A DNA stretch of 56,397 nt from Actinomycetota bacterium (GCA_947449945.1 CANFTO010000001.1:1-56397), one strand, 5' to 3'. Positions 33,985-49,520 are shown, counted from the stretch's first letter. Made by a program: numbers and translations. The notes: generated by a model from the sequence alone, not told the origin.

Positions 33985-34584
33985 ATGTCATTCATCCTTA
34001 GCCGAAAGGTCCTCATGGAAGACGCCTCTGCTGCATTAAAAGCCGAGCTTGAACCCTTCTTGAATAAGCCGGGAGCTCGTCAATTTACTGCGATTGAAAT
34101 TGAAAAGCAGTTCGTCTGGGATTACTGCTCGGCAGTTGAAGATGGCAATCCGGTGTATTGGGATGAAGAGGTTGCCAAGAAGTCGCGCTTTGGTCGACTC
34201 ATTGCTCCACCCAACACCTTGATGACCTTGAACCGGCCGGCGCATTGGTTGCCAAAGGACCAACAGGACAAGGCTGAGGAAGTAGCAGCAGCGCTACCTC
34301 CATCACCTCAAGCACAGGCCCGCGAGATTTTGGCAAATCATGGGTTCACAACGGTCACAGTGGTGAATCGCGAAGAGGAATATTTCGAGCCCTTTGGCCC
34401 AGGTGATGGTCGTCTAGCAATGGAAGATCGCTTCGTTGCTGTGAGTGACATCAAGACCACCAAGGTTGGTCCTGGCGTGTTTTTTACTTACGAAATTGAT
34501 TACTACACCGAGCGCGACAATCGACTTGTCGGTCGCGCACGTAACGTCACTTTGATTTACAACGGCAGCGGAGCAACAAAATGA
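33985..34584 (+). CDS. MaoC-like hydratase, N-terminal-type hot-dog subunit (FAS1-DH-like)
   Basis: I assigned this from the hot-dog-length protein, the GNPVYWDEE motif, and the 4-nt overlap with the downstream MaoC subunit. The alternative start ATG 34015 has a better SD. Confidence 0.65.
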   Translation: MSFILSRKVLMEDASAALKAELEPFLNKPGARQFTAIEIEKQFVWDYCSAVEDGNPVYWDEEVAKKSRFGRLIAPPNTLMTLNRPAHWLPKDQQDKAEEVAAALPPSPQAQAREILANHGFTTVTVVNREEEYFEPFGPGDGRLAMEDRFVAVSDIKTTKVGPGVFFTYEIDYYTERDNRLVGRARNVTLIYNGSGATK

Positions 34585-35012
34585 CCCACCATGCATCCAT
34601 TGACTTTGCATCAATCAACGAAGGCGACGCGCTCCCAAATCTCACCTTCGAGGTGAGTTACACGACCCTTGCTCAAGATGTTTCTGGAACGCGTGATTAC
34701 TACCCAATTCATCATGACCCAGAGTTTGCAAAAGCTGGTAACGCACGCAATATCTTCCTGAACACGATGTGGTACCAGGGCATGGTGAACCGATTCGTCT
34801 CGGAGTGGGCAGGGTATGAATCCTTCTTACGCAAACTCAGTGTTGACATGAAGTCACATGGTTGCCCGGGTGACACACTCACCGTTCGTGGAACCGTTTT
34901 GGCGACACGCACCGATGATCAGGGTCGCAAGCTCGTTGATCTTGATGTACGCATGGATAACCAGCTTCAGCCGGATGTGCTGTTGTCAAAGGTCACTGTA
35001 GAAATCCCGTAA
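34581..35012 (+). CDS. MaoC family dehydratase (C-terminal-type hot-dog subunit)
   Basis: DYYPIHHDPEFAK hydratase motif, 143 aa. Confidence 0.75.
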   Translation: MTHHASIDFASINEGDALPNLTFEVSYTTLAQDVSGTRDYYPIHHDPEFAKAGNARNIFLNTMWYQGMVNRFVSEWAGYESFLRKLSVDMKSHGCPGDTLTVRGTVLATRTDDQGRKLVDLDVRMDNQLQPDVLLSKVTVEIP

Positions 35013-35033
35013 GACAATTTGAATGGTGAAGTG

Positions 35034-36209
35034 ATGTCGAAGACTGGTCCAGCTCGTACTATTTTCGATCCAGAGCATGATGAATTTCGTGCGTTTGTTC
35101 GTGAGTTCCTTGAGCGCGAAGTAGCACCTCACCACGAGCGTTGGGAAGAGCAAGGCCGCGTCGATAAAGAGTTCTATGCGGTGGCTGCTGAAAAGGGCAT
35201 CGTCGGTTTCTGGGTTCCTCAAGAGTTCGGCGGCTTGGGCATTGAGGATTTCCGTTACAACGTGGTGATCCAAGAAGAACTGGGCAAGATGGCTTTCAGC
35301 GCTCCATCTATTCGTTTGTATAACGACATCATTGCTCCCTATCTCTTGAATCTCACCAATGACGAGCAAAAGCAGCGATGGTTGCCAGGCCAAGCAAAGG
35401 GCACTTTCACATTTTCACTGGGTCTATCTGAACCAGGTGCAGGAAGTGACCTTGCCGGTGCGCGTACGAGTGCAGTGCGAGATGGTGACGGCTGGATTGT
35501 TAACGGCTCAAAGATTTTCATCACCAATGGTTTGAACTCTGATGCAACTATCGTGTTTTGCAAGACCAATCCTGATGCGGGGCATCGAGGTTTCAGTCTG
35601 CTTGTTGTTGAAGATGGCATGGAAGGGTTCAAACGCGGCCGCAAATTGAAGAAGATCGGCATGGCAGGTCAAGACACTGCTGAACTCTTCTTCGAAGATG
35701 TGCGCGTTCCGGAAGCGAACCTGCTCGGCGAAGAAGGCCAAGGGTTCTACTACCTAATGATGAATTTGGGTGTTGAGCGATTAGCCATTGCACTTGCTGC
35801 CCTGTCACAAGCACGTCAGGTCTTTGACGACACCTTGGATTACGTAAAAACTCGTGAGGCCTTTAAGCAACCAATTGGAACCTTCCAAGCCAATAAGCAT
35901 GTGATGGCAACTTTTTCCACTGAGCTCGACATTGCTCAGGTGTATGTCGATTCATTGATCACCAAGGTGCTTGACGGGACACTGAGCGATATTGAAGCGT
36001 CAAAGGCGAAGTGGTGGGTGACTGAACTTGGTAAGCGTGTGATCGACGGCTGCCTACAACTTCATGGCGGTTACGGGTACATGCTCGAGTACCCAGTTGC
36101 TAAGGCGTACATCGATTATCGCTACATGACTATTGGTGGAGGTAGCACCGAGATCATGAAGGAAATGATCGGTAACGATCTTGGACTTGCGTGGCGTAAC
36201 CGTGGCTAA
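35034..36209 (+). CDS. acyl-CoA dehydrogenase
   Basis: LSEPGAGSDLA, FITNG and the C-terminal GGGSTEIMKEMI motifs. Confidence 0.9.
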   Translation: MSKTGPARTIFDPEHDEFRAFVREFLEREVAPHHERWEEQGRVDKEFYAVAAEKGIVGFWVPQEFGGLGIEDFRYNVVIQEELGKMAFSAPSIRLYNDIIAPYLLNLTNDEQKQRWLPGQAKGTFTFSLGLSEPGAGSDLAGARTSAVRDGDGWIVNGSKIFITNGLNSDATIVFCKTNPDAGHRGFSLLVVEDGMEGFKRGRKLKKIGMAGQDTAELFFEDVRVPEANLLGEEGQGFYYLMMNLGVERLAIALAALSQARQVFDDTLDYVKTREAFKQPIGTFQANKHVMATFSTELDIAQVYVDSLITKVLDGTLSDIEASKAKWWVTELGKRVIDGCLQLHGGYGYMLEYPVAKAYIDYRYMTIGGGSTEIMKEMIGNDLGLAWRNRG

Positions 36210-36645
36210 CTTCTCCGAGGTCATCACTGTTGAAGATCGTTTGGCGATTCTGGACATGTTTGCTCGTCAATCCCATTGCATCGATAGTGGGGATGCCGCT
36301 GGTTGGGCGGCCACGTATGCACTCGATGGATCGTTCCATTCGCCGACCTACAAGCTCACCGCCACTGGTCGACCAGCGCTCACTGAGTTCGCTGAGAATT
36401 CAAATTCAGGGGCACGATCACGAGGCGAGCAATTTCGACACCATGTTTCGGCAGTAATGCTCACCCCGAAAACCCCAACCGAAGTCACGTCGGTGAGTTA
36501 TCTCATGATTTTGGCAACCACACTGGATGGCACTCGGGTTGATCGAAGTGTGAGAATGTTCGACGAACTTAGAAAAGTCGAAGGGGAGTGGCTCGTGGCA
36601 TCGCGCACCGTGCTTCGCGACGATTCCGAACTGCAACCTAAGTAA
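36202..36645 (+). CDS. NTF2-like (SnoaL_4-type) protein
   Basis: VEDRLAILDMFARQSHCIDSGD is typical of SnoaL-like NTF2 proteins. I chose GTG 36202, which overlaps the ACAD stop; the track TTG start is at 36181. Confidence 0.6.
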   Translation: MANFSEVITVEDRLAILDMFARQSHCIDSGDAAGWAATYALDGSFHSPTYKLTATGRPALTEFAENSNSGARSRGEQFRHHVSAVMLTPKTPTEVTSVSYLMILATTLDGTRVDRSVRMFDELRKVEGEWLVASRTVLRDDSELQPK

Positions 36646-36671
36646 AATCTGACGTAAAGGGTGAGGCTGTA

Positions 36672-37508
36672 ATGAAATTTGTGACCTTTAAGGCCGATGG
36701 CCAGACTCGTATTGGTGCTTTCGATGGCGTCAGTGTCACTGAACTCAGCAGCCTGCCTGCAGGCGTGACCGATCTACGCGGGCTTCTCACTGCGGTGCCA
36801 CCAGCGGACCTTCCCAAGGTGGAGGCTCATGGAAAGACATGGGATCTCGCGGATGTTGAATTACTTCCAGTCATCCCAAACCCCAACAAGATCATCTGCG
36901 TTGGCGTGAATTACCGATCGCATCGCGAAGAAACTGGCCAAGATCCAAACCTGAAGCCAACAATCTTCACGCGCTTTGCCGACACCCAAATTGCGCACGG
37001 TGCTGTAGTTACGCACCCTTCAGCAACTGACAGCTTTGACTATGAAGGCGAACTTGCAGTCATCATTGGCCGGGATGCTAAGGATGTTGCTGCAGCTGAT
37101 GCGTGGAGCGTTGTTGCGGGATTTGCTCCCTACAACGACCTCACCGCTCGCGATTGGCAGAAGCATTCAACACAGTGGATTCCTGGAAAGAATTTCCCAG
37201 AGACCGGCGCATTTGGCCCGGCAATGGTGACCTTGGATGAAATTGCTGATGTTCCTTCAGTTGAACTCACCACTCGCGTCAATGGTGACGTACGACAGAA
37301 CGCAACCCTTGCCGACATGATCTTCGATATTCCTGCACTCATTGAATACATCACCGGATTCACCCCACTTGCTCCAGGCGATGTGATTGTTTCTGGAACA
37401 CCTGGTGGTGTTGGCAAGTTCATGACTCCACCGACCTACCTCAAGGCAGGCGACGTCGTGGAAATTGAGCTGAGCGGTGTTGGTCTGTTGGTGAACACGA
37501 TCGGCTAG
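36672..37508 (+). CDS. fumarylacetoacetate hydrolase (FAH) family protein
   Basis: MKFVTF...RIGAF N-domain, then NKIICVGVNYRSH, DYEGELAVIIG and GTPGGVG motifs. Confidence 0.85.
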   Translation: MKFVTFKADGQTRIGAFDGVSVTELSSLPAGVTDLRGLLTAVPPADLPKVEAHGKTWDLADVELLPVIPNPNKIICVGVNYRSHREETGQDPNLKPTIFTRFADTQIAHGAVVTHPSATDSFDYEGELAVIIGRDAKDVAAADAWSVVAGFAPYNDLTARDWQKHSTQWIPGKNFPETGAFGPAMVTLDEIADVPSVELTTRVNGDVRQNATLADMIFDIPALIEYITGFTPLAPGDVIVSGTPGGVGKFMTPPTYLKAGDVVEIELSGVGLLVNTIG

Positions 37509-37520: not shown

Positions 37521-37558
37521 GAAGAAGGGCCCTGCAGATATCTGCTGGGCCCTTCTTC
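37521..37558. terminator. bidirectional stem-loop terminator
   Basis: GAAGAAGGGCCC-tGCAGATATCTGCt-GGGCCCTTCTTC, between convergent genes. Confidence 0.55.
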
Positions 37559-37571: not shown

Positions 37572-37979
37572 TTAGCGCACCTTGCGGAAGTACGGCAGGA
37601 ACTTTGTGCCGTCTCCTACTGGAAGCATTTCTGCCTGCACACGATCGCCGATTGCAAGATCGGCAGCGTCAGCTTCATCAACGAGACGCGAGAGCAAACG
37701 GATTCCTTCATCGAGACGAACATCGATGAAGGCGTATGGAGCCTCATCTACAAATGATGGATTTTCCGGACGACGCACGATTGAGAAGGTGTAAATCTCA
37801 CCAGCGCCGGAGAGGTGCTCGTAGATAAAGTTTTCACTCATGCACGTTGGGCACACTGGCTTTGGGTAGTACCAAAGGCGATTGCAATCTTGGCAACGTT
37901 GCGCGCTAAGGATTCCCTTTTCACCATTTGCCCAGTAGTCGCGATCCCAAGGAACGGTCTTTGGTGTTGGCCTAGTCAT
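37572..37979 (-). CDS. Zn-ribbon OB-fold protein (DUF35)
   Basis: CQDCNRLWYYPKPVCPTC zinc ribbon followed by an OB-fold. 8-nt overlap with the upstream thiolase-like gene. I trimmed the start from 37997. Confidence 0.8.
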   Translation of the reverse strand: MTRPTPKTVPWDRDYWANGEKGILSAQRCQDCNRLWYYPKPVCPTCMSENFIYEHLSGAGEIYTFSIVRRPENPSFVDEAPYAFIDVRLDEGIRLLSRLVDEADAADLAIGDRVQAEMLPVGDGTKFLPYFRKVR

Positions 37980-39141
37980 TGAAAGGCTCCTTTCCAAGCA
38001 TCATGCCGCAGGTAATAACAAGGTTGGTTTGGTAGGACATCAAGCCGATACCGCTGACGAAACCGATCTTTGCGTCCTTGATCTGACGAGGACCTGCTTC
38101 ACCGCGAAGCTGGCGAATTGATTCGATCACTGGGATGTAACCACCGCCGAGGCGTGGTTGTCCGATCGAAAGAATGCCACCGCTGGTGTTAATGGGCAGT
38201 GGGCCTTCGAGTGAGAAGTCGTTGTCTTCAACCCACTTGCCACCTTGACCGAGTTCGCAGAACCCAAGATCTTCGATCTGCTTGATGATTGCCATTGGGT
38301 AATCGTCATATAGCTGCATGAAGTCGAGATCTTCGCGCTTGGTCTTCTCGAACAGTTGATCGCGAATGTCAATGAAGCCCGTGAGCAAACGATCTGGTTC
38401 TTGATCCTGTGCACCAGCACTGTGCTTTTCTGCATACGTGCCGATGTAGATAGGAGGCTTGGCCAACTTCTTGGCGTACTCCTCGCTGGTCACGATTACT
38501 GCAATGGCACCAGCACAACGCATTACGCAGTCGAGCTTGCGAATTGGGTCTGCAATCAGTGGTGAATTGATGTAGTCATCAATAGTCATTGGATCGCGAA
38601 GCAATGCGTTGTCATTGAGTGCTGCATGCTTACGGAAGGTAACTGAAACCTTGCCAAGTTGTTCAAGGGTGGTTCCGTAGGTTTCCATGTGCAAGCGCTG
38701 AACCATGCCAAATTGGCTGTTCGGTCCGCCGTAGCCGTAAGGCAGGATGAAACTGCGGTGTGCGTAGTCAATTGGAGGCGAGACTGCATCGTGATGTAGA
38801 TCAGTGAAGTCGGCGCGGTTACCGCCACCAACACACACCACGACATCCGCGCGGCCAGCTTCAATAGCTTCGACAGCACGAGCGATGCTCATCACCGATG
38901 AGGCGCCGCCGTAGTCAGCCTTCATCGTCCAATTCACTGCAAGACCAAGATGCTCTGCCATGTATGAGGAGTCGTCCGGCAAAACGTTCGCACAAAAGAC
39001 GATGCCGTTGATATCGGACTTGGGAATTCCGGTGTCGGCCATGGCCAGGCGAATTGCCTCGGCCATGAACTGAAGGTCAGCCTTCTCTGATTTACGAGAG
39101 AAGGTGGTTTCAGCTGCACCAGCGATCACTGCTCTGGTCAT
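37972..39141 (-). CDS. SCPx-type thiolase-like / lipid-transfer protein (Ltp/IpfD-like)
   Basis: 389 aa. Thiolase fold with an N-terminal AVIAGAAETTF motif and a C-terminal INTSGG motif. It is coupled to DUF35, as in known Ltp-DUF35 systems. Confidence 0.85.
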   Translation of the reverse strand: MTRAVIAGAAETTFSRKSEKADLQFMAEAIRLAMADTGIPKSDINGIVFCANVLPDDSSYMAEHLGLAVNWTMKADYGGASSVMSIARAVEAIEAGRADVVVCVGGGNRADFTDLHHDAVSPPIDYAHRSFILPYGYGGPNSQFGMVQRLHMETYGTTLEQLGKVSVTFRKHAALNDNALLRDPMTIDDYINSPLIADPIRKLDCVMRCAGAIAVIVTSEEYAKKLAKPPIYIGTYAEKHSAGAQDQEPDRLLTGFIDIRDQLFEKTKREDLDFMQLYDDYPMAIIKQIEDLGFCELGQGGKWVEDNDFSLEGPLPINTSGGILSIGQPRLGGGYIPVIESIRQLRGEAGPRQIKDAKIGFVSGIGLMSYQTNLVITCGMMLGKEPFND

Positions 39142-39302
39142 GAATGCTCACCTCGATGGATACGGTTCTGTGCGGTCAACACGGTTGACTCCTTTTATTG
39201 GGCGAAACTGCTGCACACTCAAGTCGCATCACCTGCAACTCGTGCGTAGGGTGGATCTTGGTCGATCGCCTCGTGAGGGGTGCGACCGGTAGCAATATTA
39301 CC

Positions 39303-39344
39303 AGAATAGATTTCTTTGTTCAGAGTATGGAAAAATCTATTTCT
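39303..39344. promoter_or_regulatory. imperfect inverted repeat AGAATAGATTTC-N15-GAAAAATCTATTTCT
   Basis: I read it in the AT-rich part of the 310-bp divergent intergenic region. Confidence 0.3.
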
Positions 39345-39451
39345 GACATTCTGAGTCTACTTTTCAATAAAATCTTGCAGAAAACATCGCCCTATGAAAT
39401 TGTTGAGCTCTGGGGCCTTGGCTCTGGGATTTCGCAACTTTGGAGGCCATC

Positions 39452-40885
39452 ATGACCATCGCTGACTCAACTCGTGCTGACAGCCCAATCCAGCACATTC
39501 GTGCCACCGTGCCGCTAGCGATTGAAGACCTCGAGCGAATTCCCACCAAGCGCTACTACGACCCTGAATTCTTCGAGTGGGAAAAGAATCACCTGTGGAC
39601 CCGCACTTGGCAGATGGCCTGCCGTCTAGAAGAAATCCCCAATGTTGGCGACTTCATGGAATACACCATCATCGATAAGTCGGTGATCGTGGTGCGCGAA
39701 AGCGAGACTGAAGTCAAGGCCTTCCAAAACGTCTGCCCGCACCGCGGTAACACGTTGGTTCGCGGCACGGGAAACGCAAAGAGTGGTTTTGTGTGTGGTT
39801 TCCATGGCTGGTGCTGGAACACCAAAGGTGAAAACACCTTCGTGTACCAGCCGCACCTGTTCAGCGAAGCGCTCATGGACCCTAACAACATTCGCCTTCG
39901 TGAAGTGAAGTCGGAAATCTGGGGCGGCAACGTTTTCATTAACTTTGATCTCAATGCAGCTTCGTTGAAAGAGCGCCTCGACCCGTTCTACACAAACGTT
40001 GGCGAATACAACATTGAACATCAGCGCACCGTGTGGTGGTACGCCGTTGAGGTTCCGGCGAACTGGAAGGTTGGTGTTGAAGCCTTCATGGAGGGGTACC
40101 ACGTTCTCCAAACCCACCCCCAGCTCATGCCAAAGAATTCGCGTCCGGCAACGCAGCAATTCGCAGCAACTCAAGGTGGCGGCAGTTCGCTTGCAGCTCG
40201 CCTTGCCGGTGCAGGTCCAGAAGAAATAGCTAAGGCCACCAATGACTTTTTGACAGTCCTTGGTCATGGTATGGATTCCTGGATTCTTGAGAAAGACCTC
40301 ACCATTGCGGCAGGCATGCGGGCCAATCTTCCTGACAATGTTGAAGAAGCAATTCCGGAATATCGGCGTCAACTCAACGACGCAATTGTTGAATGGAACC
40401 GTTCGCTTGGTATGCCAATTGCAGATCTGAATGCTCTTGAGGCAGCCGGCAATCGCCCAACCGTGAACCCTTCATTCCCGAATTACTTCACCCTGCCTTA
40501 CTTCGGTAACTCAACTTCCTACCGTTTCCGCCCATTGACACCAGACACCATGATTTTCGAAATGCGTTCCATGACGCTTTTCCCAGAGGGTGAAGCACCT
40601 GAGTGTCCAAAGGAACCAACGTGGGTGTCGCTCGATGATCCACGTTGGCCAGCGATTCCAGTTCAAGACTTTGGCAATATTCCGAACATTCAAATTGGTT
40701 TGAAGGCGCCAGGTATGGAATACACAAGCATCTCTCATCAAATTGAAGGTCGCATCAGCCGATTCCATCAATTAATTGATGGGTATCTCGCAGGTGTTGA
40801 TGAAGAAACGTTGACGCGTGCGCACCGTTACACATCGGGACCAATTGACGTGCCAATCGTTGATATTTGGGCTGACGAAAGCTAA
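39452..40885 (+). CDS. Rieske [2Fe-2S] aromatic-ring-hydroxylating oxygenase, alpha subunit
   Basis: CPHRGNTLV...CGFHGW Rieske motif and an NWK..EAFMEGYHV..TH mononuclear-iron region. I chose ATG 39452, which follows TGGAGG; the track TTG start is at 39440. Confidence 0.85.
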   Translation: MTIADSTRADSPIQHIRATVPLAIEDLERIPTKRYYDPEFFEWEKNHLWTRTWQMACRLEEIPNVGDFMEYTIIDKSVIVVRESETEVKAFQNVCPHRGNTLVRGTGNAKSGFVCGFHGWCWNTKGENTFVYQPHLFSEALMDPNNIRLREVKSEIWGGNVFINFDLNAASLKERLDPFYTNVGEYNIEHQRTVWWYAVEVPANWKVGVEAFMEGYHVLQTHPQLMPKNSRPATQQFAATQGGGSSLAARLAGAGPEEIAKATNDFLTVLGHGMDSWILEKDLTIAAGMRANLPDNVEEAIPEYRRQLNDAIVEWNRSLGMPIADLNALEAAGNRPTVNPSFPNYFTLPYFGNSTSYRFRPLTPDTMIFEMRSMTLFPEGEAPECPKEPTWVSLDDPRWPAIPVQDFGNIPNIQIGLKAPGMEYTSISHQIEGRISRFHQLIDGYLAGVDEETLTRAHRYTSGPIDVPIVDIWADES

Positions 40886-40907
40886 GTCGTTTCATAATTT
40901 TGTTCGT

Positions 40908-40928
40908 TACCTTGCAAAAAGCAAGGTA
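40908..40928 (+). other. intercistronic stem-loop TACCTTGC-aaaaa-GCAAGGTA
   Basis: Perfect 8-bp stem between the Rieske gene and the E1-alpha gene, with no U-tract. A strong SD (GGAGGAAG) follows. Confidence 0.3.
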
Positions 40929-40957
40929 CAAGCCGCAAGGCGTGTAGGAGGAAGTGA

Positions 40958-41932
40958 ATGTCGCTGAGTACTCAGCAGTTGGAAGAGGCGTATGCAGAAA
41001 TGTTGCGCATCCGTGGGTTCGAAGAACGTGCCCAAGAGCTCTATGCAAAATTGCATTTCAAAGGTTCAACACACCTTGGCATCGGCCAGGAAGCCGTTGC
41101 TGTGGGCACACGTCTTGGTTTGCAGGACGGTGACCTTGTCGCTCCTACGTACCGTGGGCACGCCTACGCACTTGCTTGGGGAATGACCTCATTCAGCCTG
41201 TTCGCTGAGCTTCTCGGGCGCGAGGCCGGAAGTAATCACGGTCGTGGCGGATCAAAGCACATGGGTAGTGCTGAACTCGGTGTGATTCCAGGAAACGCAA
41301 TCGTTGCTGCGAACCTTCCTATTGCTTGCGGTACCGCGTTGCGCGCCAAGATGGATGGCGATGACGAAGTAACCGTTGTGGTGTTCGGCGATGGTGCAAC
41401 CAACCAAGCTGCCTTCCATGAAGCGATGAACCTCGCCGCGGTGTGGGATCTTCCAGTGATTTTCCTTTGCGAAAACAACCTGTACTCAGAAATGACACCG
41501 ATCAAGGATGCGGTGAAGGTTGATGAGCTGAGCATTCGTGCCTCGGCGTACGGCATGCCAGGTGTGCGCGTTGATGGAATGTCGGTAGGCGCGGTTGCTG
41601 ATGTAGTTTCACAAGCTGCTGCCCGCGCACGCTCAGGTCAAGGTCCAACGTTCATAGAAGCCATGACCTACCGTTACTGCGGTCACATGCCAGGTGACTT
41701 GTGTGATTACCGCACGCGCGAAGAAGAAGCTGAGTGGAAGTCCCGTGACGCAATTGAGGCATGCGAGACACTCCTCATTGCTGCAGGGAAGACACCAGCG
41801 GAAACTGCAGCAATTCGCGCACAAGTTGAGGCAGACCTCAATACCGCAGAAGCTGAAGCACTTGCTTCACCACTACCTGACCCTTCGACGATTAACCGCG
41901 GCGCTGCTGCATGGATGGAGACCTCACGATGA
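40958..41932 (+). CDS. TPP-dependent 2-oxoacid (pyruvate/acetoin/BCKA-type) dehydrogenase E1 alpha subunit
   Basis: MLRIRGFEER, GQEAVAVG, and FGDGATNQAAFHEAMNLAAVWDLPVIFLCENN (TPP motif). Confidence 0.9.
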   Translation: MSLSTQQLEEAYAEMLRIRGFEERAQELYAKLHFKGSTHLGIGQEAVAVGTRLGLQDGDLVAPTYRGHAYALAWGMTSFSLFAELLGREAGSNHGRGGSKHMGSAELGVIPGNAIVAANLPIACGTALRAKMDGDDEVTVVVFGDGATNQAAFHEAMNLAAVWDLPVIFLCENNLYSEMTPIKDAVKVDELSIRASAYGMPGVRVDGMSVGAVADVVSQAAARARSGQGPTFIEAMTYRYCGHMPGDLCDYRTREEEAEWKSRDAIEACETLLIAAGKTPAETAAIRAQVEADLNTAEAEALASPLPDPSTINRGAAAWMETSR

Positions 41933-42915
41933 GCGCGCGCGAACTTCCGTACCGCGAGGCAATCCGCGAAGCAATTCAAATTGAAATGCAACGCGATCCA
42001 GATGTATTCATCATGGGTGAAGACATTGGAAGCTACGGCGGCATCTACAAGGTGACCAAGGGGCTCTACGAAGAATTCGGCCCTGAGCGAGTGATGGATA
42101 CGCCGATTTCTGAGGCTGGCTTTGTCGGTGCTGCGATTGGTGCAGCAATGGTAGGCAAGCGTCCGATTGTTGAGTTGATGTTCATGGACTTCTCACTCGT
42201 AGCTGCTGATCAGATTCTTAACCAAGCTGGCAAGCAGCGCTTCATGAGTGGTGACGACTTCCGTGTCCCAATGACCATCCGTACCCAGCAGGGTGCAGGT
42301 GGCGGTGTAGGTGCACAACACGGTCAGTCACTCGAGGCATTGTTTATGCACATTCCTGGATTCGCGATCGCACTTCCTTCAACTGCCGCTGACGCAAAGG
42401 GCTTGATGGCGACTGCTATTCGCATGGACGATCCAACGATGTTTATTGAGCACAAGACGCTCTACGCAGAAAAGGATCCCGTACCAGAAGGTGAGTACCT
42501 GATTCCATTTGGTAAGGCTGCAATCCGTACAGAAGGATCAGACATCACGTTGATTTCTTACAGCGCTTCAATGCTGCCAACACTTAAGGCAGCTGAACTG
42601 TTAAAGACAAACCATGGGATCAACGCTGAGGTCATCGACCTTCGCACGATCGTTCCTGTTGATTGGGCAACCTTGACTGCATCGGTGATGAAGACTGGTC
42701 ACGGCATCGTGATCCACGAAGCTCACCGCCGTGGCGGTGTTGGCGCAGAAATTGCAGCAGAACTCACCCAGCGCACATGGGGCACTTTGGCTGCACCAAT
42801 CGCTCGTATCGGTGGCTTGGATATTCCAATCCCGTTCTCCCCTTCACTGGAAGCGGTTTGGCACATTCAGCCAGAAGACATCGTGAACACTGCTCTTCGT
42901 ACGTTGAAGAAGTAA
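41929..42915 (+). CDS. 2-oxoacid dehydrogenase E1 beta subunit
   Basis: YREAIREAI..EM.RD..VFIMGEDIG..GG and DTPISEAGFVG motifs. ATGA overlap with alpha. Confidence 0.9.
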   Translation: MSARELPYREAIREAIQIEMQRDPDVFIMGEDIGSYGGIYKVTKGLYEEFGPERVMDTPISEAGFVGAAIGAAMVGKRPIVELMFMDFSLVAADQILNQAGKQRFMSGDDFRVPMTIRTQQGAGGGVGAQHGQSLEALFMHIPGFAIALPSTAADAKGLMATAIRMDDPTMFIEHKTLYAEKDPVPEGEYLIPFGKAAIRTEGSDITLISYSASMLPTLKAAELLKTNHGINAEVIDLRTIVPVDWATLTASVMKTGHGIVIHEAHRRGGVGAEIAAELTQRTWGTLAAPIARIGGLDIPIPFSPSLEAVWHIQPEDIVNTALRTLKK

Positions 42916-42942
42916 TTCCTCACCTTTTCGAGAACAAGAGAC

Positions 42943-44571
42943 ATGTCAAATATCAGCAACGGTTGGGCTACTGGCACCCGCGATTGCGTCACGGATGCAT
43001 TTGCGCGTTCTGTTGCAACAGTTCCTGATTCAGTGTTCCTTGATTTCTCTGGTGAGAGCTACACCTATGCGCACTTTGATCGCCTGAGCTCACACCTAGC
43101 TTCATCTTTCTTGAAGCTAGGTGTGCAGCCGGGCGATCGAGTCGCTTCAATGCTCGATAACAGTGTGCAAGCGGTCGCCACATGGATTGCTGCAAACAAA
43201 ATCGGCGCGATCTGGGTGCCTATTAATACGGCAAATAAAGGTGAGTTTCTTCGTCACCCACTGGCTGACTGTGGAGCAAAGCTCGTCGTTGTTGATGCTC
43301 AATATTTTGAGCGCATAGCGATGGTTGCCGATGGGGTTCCAGCAATCGAACTTGTGTTGGTGAATGGCGAGCAGTCGGCAGCCGTCACAACGCCATTCGC
43401 AGTGCAAGCGCTGAGAGTTCACTGGGGCGAATCGGCGACCGTTGAGGTCGTGGCAAATTCTCCGTCGGATATCGGCGCCTTGATGTACACCTCGGGCACC
43501 ACTGGACCATCTAAAGCCTGCATGATGAGTCACAACTACTTGTGCAATATTGCGCGGGCTGGTTCAAATTTGGTCGCTCTTGAACCACATGACATTGTGT
43601 GGACACCACTTCCGTTGTTTCACACCAGCGGTTTGCAAGCAATTCTTGGCGCAATCATTGTTGGCGGAAAAGTATCGATTTCGCTGAAGTTCTCAGCCTC
43701 TAACTTCTGGTCAGAAATTGAAACATCTGGTGCGACAGTTGCCAAAATCATGGCTTCGATGGTGCCAATCCTTATCTCTGCACCAGATGACGATGCTATG
43801 AAGCGCACATTTGGCCAGGTCCGAGCTGTTGTTGGGAATCCATTCACTCCGGCACAAAAACAAGCCTTTTACGACCGCTTTGGGGTGAAATACATCGCGA
43901 ATAATCAGTACGGATCAACAGAGGTGTACTGCGGAACAAGCGTGCCTTACTTATCTGAGACCCCACAAGGATCAGCTGGTAAGCGCAATGATGATTTCGA
44001 TGTGATTGTGCTTGATGACAACGATTGTGAAGTCCCGTACGGAACGCCTGGTGAACTTTGCTTCCGTCCAAGTAAGCCTGATGTGATGTTCTCCGGATAC
44101 TGGCAGCAGCCTGAAAAGTCAGCAGAAGTGTGGCGCAACTTGTGGATGCACACCGGTGACATGGTGAGAATGGATGAAGCGGGATATATCTATTTCACCG
44201 ATCGCAAGAAGGATTACATGCGCAAGGGCGGAGAGAACATCTCTGGCTTCGAAATGGAAAAAACTTTCATGGTGCATGAAGCCATTGGCGAGGTTTCTGT
44301 ACATGCACTCCCAAGTGAACTTGGCGAAGATGACATCAAGGTTGTTGTCGTTCTGACTGAAGGTACTTCATTGACACCAGAAGAACTTTGGCATTGGAGC
44401 CGTGAGCGGGTGCCTTCCTTCGCGACTCCTCGCTACATCGAGTTCCGCAAAGAACTTCCCAAGAATGGCGTTGGCCGTGTACTGAAGTACCAGTTGCGCG
44501 ATGAAGGAGTGACTCCAGCAACGTGGGATGTTCAAACAACAGATTTAGTCAAGAAGCGAGTGAGTAAGTAG
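42943..44571 (+). CDS. AMP-binding acyl-CoA synthetase / ligase
   Basis: YTSGTTGPSK AMP-binding motif, GE and TGD motifs, and a C-terminal PKNGVGRVLK. Confidence 0.9.
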   Translation: MSNISNGWATGTRDCVTDAFARSVATVPDSVFLDFSGESYTYAHFDRLSSHLASSFLKLGVQPGDRVASMLDNSVQAVATWIAANKIGAIWVPINTANKGEFLRHPLADCGAKLVVVDAQYFERIAMVADGVPAIELVLVNGEQSAAVTTPFAVQALRVHWGESATVEVVANSPSDIGALMYTSGTTGPSKACMMSHNYLCNIARAGSNLVALEPHDIVWTPLPLFHTSGLQAILGAIIVGGKVSISLKFSASNFWSEIETSGATVAKIMASMVPILISAPDDDAMKRTFGQVRAVVGNPFTPAQKQAFYDRFGVKYIANNQYGSTEVYCGTSVPYLSETPQGSAGKRNDDFDVIVLDDNDCEVPYGTPGELCFRPSKPDVMFSGYWQQPEKSAEVWRNLWMHTGDMVRMDEAGYIYFTDRKKDYMRKGGENISGFEMEKTFMVHEAIGEVSVHALPSELGEDDIKVVVVLTEGTSLTPEELWHWSRERVPSFATPRYIEFRKELPKNGVGRVLKYQLRDEGVTPATWDVQTTDLVKKRVSK

Positions 44572-44603
44572 TACGTAATCCAACCTTGAAAGGGATGTGC
44601 GAG

Positions 44604-44939
44604 ATGAGCAAGAGCATGTTGTTAGTTCTGACGAATCCAGTTCCTGGCAAGGAAGCAGCGTTTGAGGCGTGGTACGAGCAGCAGCATGTACCGGAAGTGC
44701 TGGATATCCCAGGTTATGTCGCTGCGTCGCGATGGAAGAAGAGCCACTTGGTTTGGCCTAGCGGCCGCCCATCAGTTGATCAGTCGCGAGCAGCGCTCTA
44801 CACCGTGGAGGGAGACCTAGAAACTGCCATCAATGCGCTGACGAGTCGGGTAGCTGATGGCACCATCGTGCTTCCGGATTGCATTGATATTGAATCCATT
44901 GGAATTACCCCTTATGAATTCATCAGTGAGACTGACTAA
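44604..44939 (+). CDS. small dimeric alpha/beta-barrel-like protein (DUF4286/EthD-like)
   Basis: AFEAWYEQQHVPEVLDIPGYVAASRW pattern. This is from memory only. Confidence 0.4.
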   Translation: MSKSMLLVLTNPVPGKEAAFEAWYEQQHVPEVLDIPGYVAASRWKKSHLVWPSGRPSVDQSRAALYTVEGDLETAINALTSRVADGTIVLPDCIDIESIGITPYEFISETD

Positions 44940-45022
44940 TTGCTGAATCGCGCGCTGATCTGTGAAGCGTGCTGGTAGAAATAGTCACTGCTGACGACTG
45001 GGTCAGGTAAATGAGGGAAGTT

Positions 45023-46432
45023 ATGTCGCACGAAGAAGATGTAATCGACGTATTGGTCGTTGGTTCTGGCCTTGCTGGATTAACCGCGGCAATTACCGCT
45101 CGCCAATCAGGGGCAGAGCAGGTGCTCATTGCGGAATCCCAGGATGTTGTCGGCGGATCCACGCGTCTTTGTGATGGCATGATCCTTGGCGCGAACACTC
45201 GTTTGCAGCGTAAGCACGGCATTGAAGACTCAGCAAAGAACTTCTTCAACGAATACATGGCGTGGACCCAATGGGAACTTCCGGGTGGCTTAATCAAGGC
45301 GTTCACGGAGGAGTCGGGGCCAGCAATTGATTGGCTCGAAGAGCAAGGTGTCGAGTTCCATGATCTTGTGATTTACGGCGGAAGTGAGAACATCCCTCGC
45401 GGAGTTGTGGCCAAAGAAAAGGGCCAGGGAATCGTCAATGTGTTGGCTGCGAAAGCCAAGTCACTGGGCATCGACATTGCCATCGGGCAGCCAGTGATGT
45501 CCCTCATTATTCGCGATGGCGCAGTTGTTGGCGCGATGGTAGGCGAGGATGAAGTCTTTGCGCGTTCAGTGATTCTTGCGTCCGGTGGCTACGGGGCTAA
45601 TCCGGAAAAGGTTGCAAAGTGGTGGCCGAATGCAACATCAGCTGGCGACTGGCTCTGGTACATGGGTGCCGACGGTGCCCAAGGTGACGCGCTTGATTTT
45701 GCTGAACAGGCTCATGCGCGCATCAGTGGGTTCGATCGTGGACTTCGTTTGCCACATCCCAATTTCGTGAATGCTCAAGAGCCGTATATTCCAGCCTGGC
45801 AGATCATGGTGAATTCACAGGGCTCACGATTTGTTGATGAGTCATCTCCATACGGTGCAGTTGACCGAGCCTTTTCCTTGAATGACAACCGCGGATTCAT
45901 TATTTTCGATGATCAGGCGCTGCATGTTGATCCGGACAATGAGATGCCTGCGTACAAGCAGGTAGTTCCTGCCTTTGGCAAGCGCCGCAGTGCAAGCTGG
46001 AACGTACCAATGATGGAAGAAATGATTGAGAAGGGTGCGATCACTAAAGCTAACTCAATTGCTGAATTGGCAACAGCACTTGATCTGCCAGATGAGCAAC
46101 TTGAGCACACCATCGCGCAATACAACACGGGTGCTGCTGACGGTGTTGACGCATTCGGCAAAGAAGCAAAATTCTTGCGTCCGATTGTGCAAGCACCGTT
46201 CTATGGCAAGGAAATCCGTCCGGCGACGATTGCTGCTACTGGTACAGGCCCAATGATTGATGCCAAGGCTCGCGTGGTCGATCACAATGGTGATCCAATT
46301 CCTGGATTGTTTGCCGCAGGTGAAGCAACAGGTGGATTCTTGGGTTACGTCTATGCAGGAAGTGGCAATTCGCTCGCTGGCTGTGCCAGCTTTGGACGCA
46401 TCGCTGGAAAGAGTGCTGCCTCAGCCCTTTAG
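45023..46432 (+). CDS. FAD-dependent oxidoreductase (FrdA / KstD / TcuA-like flavoprotein)
   Basis: DVLVVGSGLAGLTAA dinucleotide motif and a C-terminal GLFAAGEATGG...GRIAG motif. Confidence 0.8.
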   Translation: MSHEEDVIDVLVVGSGLAGLTAAITARQSGAEQVLIAESQDVVGGSTRLCDGMILGANTRLQRKHGIEDSAKNFFNEYMAWTQWELPGGLIKAFTEESGPAIDWLEEQGVEFHDLVIYGGSENIPRGVVAKEKGQGIVNVLAAKAKSLGIDIAIGQPVMSLIIRDGAVVGAMVGEDEVFARSVILASGGYGANPEKVAKWWPNATSAGDWLWYMGADGAQGDALDFAEQAHARISGFDRGLRLPHPNFVNAQEPYIPAWQIMVNSQGSRFVDESSPYGAVDRAFSLNDNRGFIIFDDQALHVDPDNEMPAYKQVVPAFGKRRSASWNVPMMEEMIEKGAITKANSIAELATALDLPDEQLEHTIAQYNTGAADGVDAFGKEAKFLRPIVQAPFYGKEIRPATIAATGTGPMIDAKARVVDHNGDPIPGLFAAGEATGGFLGYVYAGSGNSLAGCASFGRIAGKSAASAL

Positions 46433-47659
46433 CGGTTCAGTACCAATCACGTTCTTGACGAGCAAATCCGCATAATCGGATTCACTTACGCCAAGTTCAC
46501 CGCGCAAGATTTCTTCATTGTGTTGGCCAAGCATGGGTGCTGGCCGGCTATGAATCGAGCGGGAAGTTTCATATGAGAAATGCATTGGGAAAGTTGGGAA
46601 TAAGCGCGGGCCCGAGAGAGGGTGATCCAATTCCTGGTAGTACTCACGCTCAACAAGTTGCGGTTCAATGTTGTAATCCACAGGCTTAAGCAAGCGCGAA
46701 GCCGGAATGCCCGCGGCCTGCAACTGAGCGAGCATTTCGTCAGCAGTGTGCGCAAGCGTCCATTGCGCAACGGCATCATCAATTGCGTCGTGGTGCTTAT
46801 GGCGACCTTCAAGCCCAAGTGACGTTAGTGAAGCAAGTACTGGTGAACCTGTGATGGCAATGAGCGCTATCCATTCTTGATCATCACGAATAGATAGTGC
46901 AATGTATGTTTTCTCGGCATCTCCGGTTCGGTACACGCCTTGTGGGGCAAATCCTGGAGCGCGGTTACCAGGGCGCATTGGGGGATAACCGAACTGATCG
47001 GCAATCAAAATCGCGCCAGCCATCGCCATCCCGACTTCACTTTGTGGCACCTCAATGAGTTGACCATCACCAGTGCGATCGCGATATTCCAATGCCGCAA
47101 TGATTGCGGTCGTTAAATGCATCGCCACGATGGGATCCATGTAGCCACCAGGAGTTTGTGGGCGACTATCTGGGTAACCGGTCACTGTTGCAAAGCCAGA
47201 GACCTGCTCGAAAACATCGCCCCAACCCACGTAACTCTTCCAAGGGCCTTCATTGCCAAAGCTGGGTGCCCGAACCATGATGATGCCTGGGTTAATTGCT
47301 CTGAGGTCCTCGTAAGAGAGCCCTTGTTTTTCAACCACATGTGAGGCGTAGTTCTCAATGAAGATGTCAGCACTTGCGCACAACTGCTTGAGTAGGGCAC
47401 GGCCTTCATTGCTTGCGGCATCAAGAGTGATGTCGCGCTTATCGAGGTTTGTGGCTTGCCAGAGCAATCCGCGATCCATCCAGCGGTCACCAAGAATTGG
47501 TGCAGTGTGGTTTGCGCGCCACACGTCTGGGCGCTGCACACTTTCAACCTTGACTACGTCGGCACCTTGCGAAGCAAGGAACATGGTTCCGTAGGGAACA
47601 GACCAGAAATGGGCGAATTCAATTACGCGAATGCCAGCAAATGGCAATGGCTGGCTCAT
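46421..47659 (-). CDS. type III (CaiB/BaiF) CoA-transferase
   Basis: FAGIRVIEFAHFWSVPYGTMFLASQGADVVKVE. ATGA overlap with the upstream paralog. I trimmed the start from 47710. Confidence 0.85.
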   Translation of the reverse strand: MSQPLPFAGIRVIEFAHFWSVPYGTMFLASQGADVVKVESVQRPDVWRANHTAPILGDRWMDRGLLWQATNLDKRDITLDAASNEGRALLKQLCASADIFIENYASHVVEKQGLSYEDLRAINPGIIMVRAPSFGNEGPWKSYVGWGDVFEQVSGFATVTGYPDSRPQTPGGYMDPIVAMHLTTAIIAALEYRDRTGDGQLIEVPQSEVGMAMAGAILIADQFGYPPMRPGNRAPGFAPQGVYRTGDAEKTYIALSIRDDQEWIALIAITGSPVLASLTSLGLEGRHKHHDAIDDAVAQWTLAHTADEMLAQLQAAGIPASRLLKPVDYNIEPQLVEREYYQELDHPLSGPRLFPTFPMHFSYETSRSIHSRPAPMLGQHNEEILRGELGVSESDYADLLVKNVIGTEPLKG

Positions 47660-48744: not shown

Positions 48745-48830
48745 CGCGCCCATCCTTTCGACATGGCTTAGTCTAAAGGGACGATATCCCAAAAGTATTT
48801 TCTCTGGTCTTTTATCGAAAATGAGGATAG

Positions 48831-49520
48831 ATGTATTTCCCAAATGACCAAGCTAAAGCCGTCGGCCAAATAGTGGCATCGCGTCATAGCTGCCGCGCAT
48901 TCCTTCCTGCGCAAGTACCAGCCGCGCAGATTCGTGACATCTTCACCTTGGCCCAGCAAACTCCCTCGTGGTGCAACACCCAGCCGTGGCAGGTCAATTT
49001 CCTGTCCGGTTCGGCTACTGCGGAATTCTCACGCCTGTTGAAGGTTCATACGGAACGCGACCCGGCAGGCAACCCAGATCTGAATTTCCCTGCGCATTAC
49101 CCAGGTGAATTCGGAAAACGTCGCAAGGCATCTGGCAAGGCACTCTTTGAAGCTGTTGGTTTAGCGCGCGACGACCTTGATGGGCGAACTCGGCAATCTG
49201 CATTGAATTATGAATTCTTCGGTGCGCCGCACGTGGCAATAATTTCGGTCCCTAAGACCCTCAACGATTACGCACTCGTTGACGCTGGTGGTTACGTGTC
49301 AACACTTATGTTGATTGCCACGAGTTTTGGTTTAGGAACAATCGCGCAAGCTTCTATCGCGAGATATTCGCCAGTTGTGCGCAACTACTTCACACTTGAT
49401 GAGGAGCAGCGCATCGTGTGCGCGGTTTCATTTGGATATGCAGATGAAAGCAATTCTGCTAATAGCTTTCGCACCGAACGCAGTTCGATCGATGATGTTG
49501 CGATCGGCCTTCCTCAATAA
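48831..49520 (+). CDS. nitroreductase family protein
   Basis: SRHSCRAFLP...PSWCNTQPW N-terminal nitroreductase signature, 229 aa. Confidence 0.8.
   Translation: MYFPNDQAKAVGQIVASRHSCRAFLPAQVPAAQIRDIFTLAQQTPSWCNTQPWQVNFLSGSATAEFSRLLKVHTERDPAGNPDLNFPAHYPGEFGKRRKASGKALFEAVGLARDDLDGRTRQSALNYEFFGAPHVAIISVPKTLNDYALVDAGGYVSTLMLIATSFGLGTIAQASIARYSPVVRNYFTLDEEQRIVCAVSFGYADESNSANSFRTERSSIDDVAIGLPQ

Follow-up and report, generated by a model that had tools for sequence, protein, structure and literature searches.

A 56,397-nucleotide stretch of DNA from an Actinomycetota bacterium (GCA_947449945.1 CANFTO010000001.1:1-56397; the whole stretch is called the window here) raises the question of whether four clustered genes make up one pathway. 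Pfam annotation of every window open reading frame (ORF) of at least 130 aa finds at 37572-44571 a DUF35 protein, a protein of the SCP2-thiolase fold, the alpha subunit of a Rieske non-haem-iron oxygenase and a CoA ligase. These are the protein types of the ipfABDEF system, and an earlier note on this DNA, which had correctly seen them clustered, read them as a single ipf-like unit. We propose instead that the region is the junction of two independently conserved catabolic modules, one for side-chain shortening (module A) and one made up of the Rieske oxygenase, a thiamine diphosphate (ThDP)-dependent E1 pair, the ligase and a flavoprotein (module B). We give this reading a probability of roughly 0.55. 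The individual features are collected in Table 1, and loci from other genomes and metagenomes are cited by L numbers.

Neighbourhood counts taken from both sides carry this proposal. The first set is anchored on the Rieske protein and holds 80 loci at 28-51% identity, one genome per species, with 10 kb on each side; linkage was counted by tblastn with the window cluster proteins (E ≤1e-5, at least 50% query coverage, within 10 kb). Around these Rieske genes an E1 beta gene is found in 33 of the 80 loci, E1 alpha in 30, an acyl-CoA dehydrogenase (ACAD) in 33, a CoA ligase in 32, a family III CoA-transferase in 23 and an FAD_binding_2 flavoprotein in 20. A relative of the SCP2-fold protein is present in 8/80, as paralogues 25-34% identical, DUF35 in 5/80, a MaoC hydratase in one or two, and SnoaL in none. 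The second set is anchored on the SCP2-fold protein: a metagenome scan with its alignment gave 80 loci and, with L087-L090, 43 loci of at least 8 kb. There a DUF35 gene lies immediately downstream in 41 of the 43 and ACAD genes are present in 32, mostly as a pair directly upstream; a crotonase gene occurs in 21/42. E1 alpha/beta genes appear in 3/43 and a Rieske gene in 1/43, and that one locus (L091) is of the window's own lineage. Conserved linkage of the SCP2-fold/DUF35 pair to the oxygenase, which the earlier note had named as a test of its model, thus fails in both directions.

A single metagenomic locus illustrates how the modules come apart. L087 (JGI 3300075614, a 17.7-kb contig) has the same divergent layout as the window, with an SCP2-fold protein 74% and an E1 alpha 78% identical to the window's. 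Its order is an FAD_binding_2 gene and ligase-E1 beta-E1 alpha, divergent from the SCP2-fold and DUF35 genes, which are followed by genes for a fumarylacetoacetate-hydrolase (FAH) family protein, a SnoaL_4 protein, an ACAD and the MaoC pair. The L087 proteins are 55-78% identical to those of the window (55-74% for module A), save for the divergent flavoprotein. The Rieske gene is absent from L087; a 153-bp spacer occupies its slot, and the SCP2-fold and DUF35 genes face E1 alpha-E1 beta-ligase directly. Because the linkage is missing from the Rieske side as well as from the SCP2-fold side, and because L087 lacks the Rieske gene, we regard the two modules as independent.

Module A centres on the SCP2-fold protein, which had been described as an SCPx thiolase. 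That name holds for the fold and does not hold for the chemistry. Ranked against the PDB, the protein is closest to the retro-aldolase CtSal (9myr_A, 1.9e-50), then to the uncharacterised 'thiolase' 4u4e (1e-48) and to TcLtp2 (6ok1_A, 7e-45), whereas true thiolases are weaker matches (BbsB, 7pxp_C, 3e-28; SCP2 thiolase, 6hsj, 1.6e-25). Residues were mapped through an HMMER alignment and numbered for CtSal as in its paper (PMC12329534). Gly79 falls on CtSal Gly89, the position of the thiolase nucleophile, and the second catalytic cysteine, that of the HDCF motif of SCP2 thiolases, is replaced by Asp280. The segment Y278-D-D280-Y aligns with CtSal Y302-D-C304-Y and TcLtp2 YDHF, placing Y278 on TcLtp2 Y294, and Q328 aligns with CtSal Q352, at the position of Ltp2 Tyr344. 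In a family alignment of 25 sequences, namely IpfD and 24 homologues that are 46-78% identical, glycine fills the nucleophile position in 25/25, YDDYP is present in all but IpfD, and Y278 is invariant. In CtSal, glycine at the nucleophilic cysteine position excludes thiolysis (PMC12329534). Because the nucleophile is replaced by glycine, the loss is family-wide and the structural ranking favours CtSal and TcLtp2, we assign the protein to the aldolase type; with both catalytic cysteines missing it is, judged by its residues, a thiolase by fold and not by chemistry.

The catalytic residues of this protein are assigned with less confidence. Tyr302 is the catalytic base of CtSal and Cys304 its essential acid, the C304A, C304S and C304H variants all being inactive (PMC12329534). 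The known catalytic acids, Cys304 of the Sal type and Tyr344 of the Ltp2 type, are both absent from the window protein. Asp280 appears to be a third variant of the acid position, beside the cysteine of Sal and the histidine plus remote tyrosine of Ltp2, and it is probably the catalytic acid. Because Asp280 is a candidate acid and the CtSal C304 variants are inactive, we describe the YDDYP protein as a putative new active-site variant of the DUF35-dependent aldolase group, and not as a confirmed member.

The DUF35 protein leads to the same group. Among solved structures it matches best the DUF35 chains of both aldolase complexes (9myr_B, 3e-15; 6ok1_B, 7e-13), and it carries a C4 zinc ribbon, C35-x2-C38-x10-C49-x2-C52. 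The likely true start of its gene is an ATG at 37979, preceded by the Shine-Dalgarno sequence GGAAAGGAG, and from this start the gene overlaps the stop of the SCP2-fold gene by 8 nt. We predict that the two proteins are translationally coupled partners that form a complex.

The SCP2-fold/DUF35 operon (37572-39141, minus strand) and the operon that converges on it (33985-37508, plus strand) together form module A. The converging operon holds, beside a GntR/FCD regulator gene, those for the MaoC pair, the ACAD, the SnoaL_4 protein and the FAH-family protein. The stop codon of the MaoC large-subunit gene, whose L087 counterpart is 60% identical, overlaps the start of the small-subunit gene; the best solved relative of the small subunit is M. 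tuberculosis ChsH1 (4w78_B/4wnb_B, 2e-10), followed by HadB. We propose that module A would act like ChsE/ChsH/Ltp2 or Scd/Shy/Sal and shorten the side chain of an acyl-CoA. The ACAD would generate a 2-enoyl-CoA, to which the MaoC hydratase would add water to give the 3-hydroxyacyl-CoA. The SCP2-fold protein, held by its zinc-ribbon/OB partner, would then make a retro-aldol cut of the bond between C-alpha and C-beta, with Tyr278 as the base and Asp280 probably as the acid, to release acetyl- or propionyl-CoA and a carbonyl compound that is probably an aldehyde. Because the adjoining ACAD and ChsH-like MaoC pair can yield a beta-hydroxyacyl-CoA, no oxygenase is needed to supply the substrate of the predicted aldolase.

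Related loci bear on the fate of that product. An aldehyde dehydrogenase gene stands straight after DUF35 in L088 and L093, whose SCP2-fold proteins are 66% identical to the window's, and suggests that the product is an aldehyde. Around the pair in L088, L089 and L090 (66%, 64% and 54%) are genes for a Baeyer-Villiger-type monooxygenase, aldehyde dehydrogenases, an extradiol dioxygenase, phenol hydroxylase, FAH and SnoaL_4 proteins; the SnoaL_4 gene is kept beside the SCP2-fold gene in L087, L088 and L089, and the FAH gene in L087 and L089. In L088, L089 and L090 the Baeyer-Villiger-type (FMO-like) gene lies just 5' of the SCP2-fold and DUF35 genes, in the slot that the Rieske and E1 genes take in the window. 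Its presence at that slot hints at an alternative handling of the carbonyl product. The SnoaL_4 protein was also considered as a hidden beta subunit of the oxygenase and rejected: its Ring_hydroxyl_B score is sub-threshold (26 bits against a cutoff of 27), BLASTP finds no significant similarity to IpfB, and the SnoaL gene accompanies none of the 80 Rieske loci outside the window's lineage.

Module B appears to be a separate and widespread unit. In the window it is a plus-strand operon of six closely packed genes (39452-46432), for the Rieske protein, E1 alpha, E1 beta, the ligase, a 111-aa protein and the flavoprotein, with family III CoA-transferase genes after it. The earlier note had placed the E1 pair accurately between oxygenase and ligase and had counted it among the differences from ipf. 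It is in fact the most specific conserved neighbour of the Rieske family; by a rough estimate, a random 20-kb window would hold an E1 pair with a chance of about 1%. A neighbour-joining tree without support values gives the window Rieske protein a deep branch to itself, flanked on either side by E1-linked members, and the Rieske-E1 association is therefore phylogenetically dispersed.

At least eight gene orders occur across Mycobacterium, other Actinomycetota, Acidimicrobiia, and Alpha- and Gammaproteobacteria. In Mycobacterium sp. E183 (L003:5275-13032), genes in the order E1 alpha-E1 beta-crotonase-ligase-Rieske-FAD_binding_2 (567 aa) have overlapping stops and starts and lie beside a divergent family III CoA-transferase gene; the flanks of this operon are unrelated (WS/DGAT, EspB), and like operons are present in L005, L007-L009, L012, L018 and L033. 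A literature search found no account of an operon of this composition. Other Actinomycetota have the order Rieske-FAD_binding_2-CoA-transferase-ACAD-ACAD, with E1 alpha-E1 beta further on, and in Acidimicrobiia E1 alpha-E1 beta-ACAD lies about 6 kb 5' of the Rieske gene. In Mycobacterium and other Actinomycetota the flavoprotein gene follows the Rieske gene directly on its 3' side. Unbiased clustering of ORFs adds short-chain dehydrogenases/reductases (SDRs), crotonases, amidohydrolase_2 proteins, cytochromes P450 and cyclases as further recurrent neighbours of the Rieske homologues, and finds no ferredoxin or reductase family among them.

The partners of the Rieske protein are intact members of familiar families. 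E1 alpha contains the ThDP motif GDG-X26-NN and scores 316 bits against TIGR03182, under the cutoff of 394; E1 beta, whose ATG overlaps the E1 alpha stop (ATGA), scores 366 bits against NF006667, above the cutoff of 321, and matches the E1 beta structures of pyruvate dehydrogenase (PDH) and branched-chain 2-oxoacid dehydrogenase (BCKDH) at ~1e-84. An E2-like ORF stands beside the E1 pair in two of about 36 related loci; the window pair is without a neighbouring E2, and a distant E2 may be encoded elsewhere in the genome. NCBIfam matches the ligase best to PRK06155, 'ATP-dependent acyl-CoA ligase', at 457 bits where the cutoff is 722. In the PDB the flavoprotein matches flavocytochrome c fumarate reductase (9e-46), urocanate reductase (2e-33) and ketosteroid dehydrogenases (2e-26 to 1e-17); by this ranking its relatives are the soluble reductases of fumarate and urocanate and, at a greater distance, KstD. 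The NCBIfam matches of the CoA-transferases are weak and are to succinate-glutarate, formyl-CoA and mesaconate transferase types. A fourth family III CoA-transferase gene lies at 3851-5131, and all four fall far below curated NCBIfam cutoffs. The 111-aa protein is kept in L001 and L091, and a 29%-identical homologue is encoded just 5' of E1 alpha in L013.

The whole 56 kb encodes no ferredoxin, ferredoxin reductase, oxygenase beta subunit or E2 among the Pfam-annotated ORFs of at least 130 aa or the small and unannotated ORFs, which bears out the earlier note's remark that the first three of these were not visible. The sole real Fe-S signature in all reading frames is the Rieske CxH...CxxH at 39734-39805, within the oxygenase gene. 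We propose that a reductase with its gene outside the window supplies the Rieske centre with electrons. In module B the ligase would provide CoA activation, and the alpha-only Rieske monooxygenase would hydroxylate an unactivated carbon of a carboxylic acid or CoA ester. The flavoprotein would desaturate or saturate a C-C bond beside a carboxyl or carbonyl group, and the ThDP-dependent E1 pair, acting without E2, would cut the resulting 2-oxo or alpha-hydroxyketone function. On the plasmid of Sphingobium yanoikuyae (L171:9571-13392), two Rieske-family paralogues flank a TauD/TfdA dioxygenase gene beside a sterol-desaturase-family gene, again with neither beta subunit nor ferredoxin.

Both modules are joined here, and partly in L087, in company with an MhpB set, and they probably serve one pathway in this lineage. 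Downstream of the CoA-transferases are genes for a phenol-hydroxylase-type flavoprotein, a LigB-type dioxygenase and an aldehyde dehydrogenase. The LigB-type protein (53211-54149) scores above the NCBIfam equivalog cutoff for MhpB, 3-carboxyethylcatechol 2,3-dioxygenase (426 bits against 291). The MhpB, phenol hydroxylase, aldehyde dehydrogenase and FAH neighbours suggest, as the substrate class, an acid of phenolic or alicyclic type that bears an alkanoate side chain; we infer this class from gene content. The region 51402-55705 as a whole, with a 594-aa phenol-hydroxylase-type FAD monooxygenase, the MhpB-type dioxygenase and the aldehyde dehydrogenase, is a phenylpropionate-type ring-cleavage set beside the cluster.

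Several points weigh against the two-module proposal or its details. The divergent promoter region shared in L001 and L091, and the link of the SCP2-fold gene to E1 alpha/beta and ligase in L087, may mean that module A and at least the E1/ligase part of module B belong to one pathway here. The inactivity of the CtSal C304 variants may mean that the YDDYP clade uses other acid/base chemistry, or catalyses another reaction. The 80 Rieske loci lack phylogenetic independence, and about ten of them are close Mycobacterium relatives. Where an E1 pair accompanies a Rieske homologue, its identity to the window's pair is only 40-50%, roughly that of any PDH E1, and orthology is taken from position alone. 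The role of E1 alpha/beta in acyloin or 2-oxo cleavage is likewise deduced from chemistry.

How much of the ipf analogy survives? In the model of the earlier note, the ligase would make an arylalkanoyl-CoA, the Rieske enzyme would oxygenate the ring at or beside the attachment of the side chain to create a beta-hydroxy group, and the SCP2-fold/DUF35 pair would remove the acyl-CoA, the whole forming an alpha-only variant of IpfABDEF. The four types are indeed adjacent, with a shared divergent promoter region, in the window, L001 and L091, and the aromatic ring-cleavage gene MhpB is near. The ipf genes were read from pIBU218 (NZ_CP059320, PMC9195938; L083). By BLASTP the Rieske protein is 27% identical to IpfA over the N-terminal 210 residues only, the SCP2-fold protein 30% identical to IpfD over its full length (1e-42), DUF35 37% identical to IpfE over 62 residues (6e-9), and the ligase 24% identical to IpfF. 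These are identities at superfamily level, and the window pair stands at least as near to Sal or Ltp2 as to IpfDE. The bridging residue is Glu in the window Rieske protein and Asp in IpfA.

IpfD itself (L083:13639-14826), called a thiolase in the literature, lacks the nucleophilic cysteine (…MDSEGSTAV…) and has YDAF in place of the HDCF of SCP2 thiolases; it is probably of the retro-aldolase type, like Ltp2 and Sal. The ipso-hydroxyl that IpfAB places on ibuprofen-CoA would lie beta to the thioester, and the release of propionyl-CoA would be a retro-aldol step as in Ltp2. Because release from a beta-hydroxylated carbon is retro-aldol chemistry, the comparison with ipf makes chemical sense for the SCP2-fold/DUF35 pair, and its deacylation chemistry is probably of the same kind. 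Ipf-like sets recur on plasmid pDK3 of Rhodococcus sp. DK180 (L085:1-3580) and on a plasmid of Sulfitobacter sp. THAF37 (L086:1-5202), each with ligase, Rieske alpha and beta, a thiolase-family protein, an OB-fold protein and a reductase nearby; ipf-type logic appears to extend beyond the ibuprofen degraders. These clusters use two-subunit dioxygenases with ferredoxin or reductase genes nearby, however, whereas the window has an oxygenase without a beta subunit. A literature search for Rieske/DUF35/thiolase-like CoA systems beyond the ipf and steroid systems found nothing relevant.

The claim that the four proteins form one ipf-like unit is not supported, because similarity to the Ipf proteins is low, reciprocal linkage is absent, L087 lacks the Rieske gene, the ACAD and MaoC proteins already route to the beta-hydroxyacyl-CoA, and the E1 pair is the conserved neighbour of the Rieske gene. 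What stands is CoA-dependent deacylation, with the SCP2-fold/DUF35 pair removing an acyl-CoA fragment; what does not is the coupling of the Rieske enzyme to that pair. The ipf-like interpretation is thus partly supported, and the full model is unlikely.

A second possibility, to which we also give a low probability, is that the E1 pair without E2 and the Rieske enzyme without a reductase act together as a new route of ketone or acyl-chain cleavage. The Rieske enzyme would hydroxylate the carbon beside a carbonyl, either of the retro-aldol product or of an oxo-acyl-CoA, to give an acyloin or 2-oxo compound. E1 would cleave this oxidatively and two electrons would return to the Rieske centre, directly or via the flavoprotein, so that neither E2 nor an NADH reductase would be needed. 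If true, this would make the Rieske/ThDP pair an alternative to the Baeyer-Villiger monooxygenase and esterase genes beside the SCP2-fold gene in L088, L089 and L090.

The identity of the Rieske protein raises a further alternative, that it is a divergent group V enzyme for demethylation or C-N cleavage of a quaternary-ammonium or N-methyl carboxylate or CoA ester, with cai-like neighbours. The Rieske protein has more than 3000 homologues at ~45% identity, with generic names only, and its metal ligands are all present and invariant (C95, H97, C115, H118; E214-x2-H217-x4-H222). Among solved structures, the alpha3-type quaternary-ammonium monooxygenases CntA and Stc2 come nearest to it in sequence, profile and predicted fold. 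CntA matches at 1e-28 by sequence, over the N-terminal half only, and at 6e-41 by profile, a narrow margin over BphA (1e-38). It is also the top Foldseek match of an AlphaFold2 model (predicted local distance difference test 86.7, predicted template-modelling score 0.86), with 18% identity and template-modelling (TM) scores of 0.5-0.7. The window motif F212-M-E214-G-Y-H217-x4-H-P aligns with Y203-M-E205-C-Y-H208-x4-H213-P of CntA; the two have in common the bridging Glu and, at -2, the aromatic residue that binds the ammonium group in group Va. The ligase scores 253 bits against the CaiC model, the CoA-transferases are of the CaiB family and the ACAD matches the CaiA model.

These likenesses have limits. 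GbcA is the best NCBIfam match of the Rieske protein at 102 bits against a cutoff of 670, and all matches to cai models are far under their cutoffs. The Cys-x-x-Cys pair that some group V members, CntA and Stc2 among them, have beside the iron site is absent, Gly215 and Val218 standing at those positions, and the C-terminal catalytic domain is ~100 residues longer than CntA's and has no sequence alignment there. No CntB/GbcB-type reductase gene is adjacent, and the recurrent neighbours (SDR, P450, amidohydrolase_2, KstD-sized flavoprotein) resemble lipid or alicyclic catabolism, not that of betaine. We therefore consider a group V function quite unlikely, and place the Rieske protein, by homology, in a putative orphan clade nearest the group V (CntA-type) enzymes and, on these rankings, inside no characterised clade. 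The earlier note had named membership of a betaine or carnitine demethylase clade as grounds to refute its model; the rankings put CntA nearest, at 18% identity, without placing the protein in such a clade. A KshA-like steroid hydroxylase was also considered and rejected, KshA structures not being among the PDB sequence matches.

Very improbable is an ordinary beta-oxidation cluster whose SCP2-fold/DUF35 pair would function as a 3-ketoacyl-CoA thiolase in the way of BbsAB, a true thiolase partnered by DUF35, or the archaeal thiolase/DUF35 complexes: Pfam thiolase domains and the NCBIfam subfamily names 'acetyl-CoA acetyltransferase' and 'lipid-transfer protein' speak for it, but both catalytic cysteines are lost (to Gly and Asp), the NCBIfam matches are well under their cutoffs, a canonical two-domain thiolase is encoded separately at 31728-32960, and no 3-hydroxyacyl-CoA dehydrogenase gene lies between 33069 and 50600.

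Table 1. Features of the module A and module B region, in window coordinates.
Feature	Coordinates	Strand	Supporting match or remark
MaoC-type (R)-enoyl-CoA hydratase large subunit, heteromeric, FAS1_DH_region hot-dog fold	33985..34584	+	PF13452 1.7e-11
MaoC hydratase small subunit, ChsH1-like	34581..35012	+	PF01575
Acyl-CoA dehydrogenase (ACAD)	35019..36209	+	all three ACAD domains
SnoaL_4 / NTF2-like protein	36181..36645	+	PF13577 1.2e-16
Fumarylacetoacetate-hydrolase (FAH) family protein; C-C hydrolase, isomerase or decarboxylase type	36672..37508	+	PF01557 3.2e-64, Rv2993c-like N domain
Near-perfect 38-nt hairpin between the convergent FAH and DUF35 genes	37521..37558		gaagaagggccctgcagat / atctgctgggcccttcttc, read from sequence
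DUF35 protein, 135 aa from ATG at 37979	37572..37979 (ORF to 37997)	-	PF12172 zf-ChsH2, PF01796 OB_ChsH2_C
Cysteine-less SCP2-thiolase-fold protein, YDDYP clade, predicted beta-hydroxyacyl-CoA retro-aldolase	37972..39141	-	Thiolase_C_1 8.8e-32
Divergent intergenic region with one perfect palindrome	39142..39451		palindrome at 39175-39189
Rieske non-haem-iron oxygenase alpha subunit, 477 aa	39452..40885	+	Rieske + Ring_hydroxyl_A domains
ThDP-dependent dehydrogenase E1 alpha	40958..41932	+	PF00676 8e-75
E1 beta	41929..42915	+	Transket_pyr + Transketolase_C domains
AMP-forming acyl-CoA ligase	42943..44571	+	PF00501 + PF13193
Small conserved 111-aa protein	44604..44939	+	no Pfam or NCBIfam match
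FAD_binding_2 flavoprotein	45023..46432	+	PF00890 1.6e-56
Family III CoA-transferases (three)	46421-47710, 47656-48843, 49521-50600	-	PF02515
Nitroreductase-family gene between CoA-transferases	48831-49520	+	PF00881

An uncultured actinobacterium is supported as the host, in agreement with the earlier note. Among named relatives, those nearest to the window's alanine dehydrogenase all come from Actinomycetota (Ca. Nanopelagicales, 83%, and other Actinomycetota metagenome-assembled genomes), and an F420H2-dependent quinone reductase of the Ddn family, encoded at 20078-20518, indicates that the host uses cofactor F420. The G+C content is ~52%. Near-identical copies of the cluster are present in the metagenome assemblies L001 and L091.

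The minus-strand SCP2-fold/DUF35 operon and the plus-strand Rieske operon diverge from a 310-bp spacer. Its palindrome, GTCAAC-ACG-GTTGAC, lies 34 bp 5' of the SCP2-fold start; it could be an operator, but was rejected as one shared by the divergent operons, being present in one copy, with four matches at up to two mismatches against 3.0 expected by chance. A scan for promoter and terminator consensus sequences was uninformative (0 promoter-like sites against 6.9 expected), and no Rfam match to a riboswitch or other RNA was found in the spacer or elsewhere searched. The hairpin between the FAH and DUF35 genes is likely to be a bidirectional terminator that parts two transcription units. On the 3' side of the six-gene run, the CoA-transferase and nitroreductase-family genes are accompanied by a second GntR regulator gene.

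Further away, 28689-30308 encodes a 539-aa protein with two virginiamycin-B-lyase-family (beta-propeller) matches, adjoining, at 30356-32960, genes for CoA-transferase A/B subunits and the canonical thiolase; the canonical thiolase gene is absent from L001, a locus otherwise identical. Steroid catabolism as the function of the whole cluster was set aside, the window having none of the steroid ring-degradation genes Hsa, Ipd and KshB.

These observations reach beyond one locus. The YDDYP clade, in which thiolysis is predicted to be impossible, is widely misannotated: in its family, thousands of proteins carry the names 'acetyl-CoA acetyltransferase', 'thiolase' or 'lipid-transfer protein'. From its residues it is probably a third active-site solution (Tyr/Asp) for DUF35-dependent retro-aldol cleavage, beside Sal (Tyr/Cys) and Ltp2 (Tyr/Tyr). 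If IpfD does belong to the broad aldolase-like group, the description of that step of the ibuprofen pathway changes. The Rieske family, spread over Mycobacterium, Acidimicrobiia and sphingomonads, is without a characterised member, and the set that it repeatedly forms with orphan E1 genes, a CoA ligase and a fumarate-reductase-like flavoprotein is a testable, unstudied module in abundant soil and freshwater bacteria. Four fitting domains found side by side can be two modules juxtaposed in one lineage, and a pathway analogy should be accepted only after neighbourhood statistics have been taken from both sides.

Set beside known systems, module A is closest to two steroid side-chain retro-aldolases. 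The best solved relative of both window proteins is CtSal-CtShy(DUF35), which cleaves bile-acid C5 side chains in Comamonas testosteroni (PDB 9MYR; PMC12329534). It shares with the window pair the glycine at the nucleophile position, the tyrosine base, the glutamine (Gln352, Q328), the dependence on DUF35 and an aldehyde dehydrogenase gene often nearby. It differs in having Cys304 where the window has Asp280 (YDCY vs YDDY) and Gln347 where the window has Ile; its DUF35 is a C3H1 C-terminal domain of the hydratase, whereas that of the window is free-standing with a canonical C4 zinc ribbon. The Comamonas substrate is a bile acid, which is unlikely for the window in view of its missing steroid-ring genes.

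The ChsE1-E2/ChsH1-ChsH2/Ltp2 system, which acts on the C3 side chain of cholesterol (PDB 6OK1), offers the same set of ACAD, heteromeric MaoC hydratase and DUF35-bound cysteine-less aldolase, with genes side by side. ChsH1 is the best solved relative of the small hydratase subunit, and ACAD genes are paired 5' of the SCP2-fold gene in most loci of the family. The window differs in its YDDY motif (YDHF in Ltp2), in the Gln in place of Tyr344, in a DUF35 that is free and not fused to the hydratase, and in its single ACAD; similarity is low for both aldolase and hydratase. IpfABDEF (pIBU218, Sphingomonas Ibu-2) has the same four types, including a cysteine-less IpfD, and acyl-CoA release from a beta-hydroxylated carbon is proposed in both. 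IpfAB is a two-subunit alpha/beta oxygenase with an Asp bridge, whereas the window Rieske protein is alpha-only with a Glu bridge and alignable over its N-terminal half; the window has an ACAD and a hydratase that ipf does not need, and its pairing of genes is not conserved in other genomes.

The components of module B have known relatives in other settings. The group V oxygenases CntA, GbcA/BmoA and Stc2 are alpha-only and share the F/Y-M-E-x-Y-H-x4-H-P motif with its bridging Glu; they differ from the window protein in the Cys pair of some members and in a shorter catalytic domain, in the low identity (18%), and in a betaine context with an adjacent reductase, where the window has an acyl-CoA context. 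Of the type of AcoAB, PDH and BCKDH E1, both E1 domains are intact, ThDP motif included, but the window pair is embedded in a Rieske/ligase/flavoprotein operon; neither the window nor some 34 of 36 related loci encode an E2 or E3 with it. The Sphingobium sp. Chol11 cluster (SclA ligase, Scd4AB ACADs and the Rieske protein Nov2c228; bioRxiv 10.1101/2021.06.24.449856) also holds a reductase-less Rieske gene among ligase and ACAD genes, for which hydroxylation during side-chain degradation was proposed. Nov2c228 is described as a KshA homologue and, KshA being absent from the PDB matches of the window protein, probably belongs to another Rieske family. By analogy only, it offers a precedent for a Rieske oxygenase that hydroxylates within a CoA-dependent side-chain pathway.

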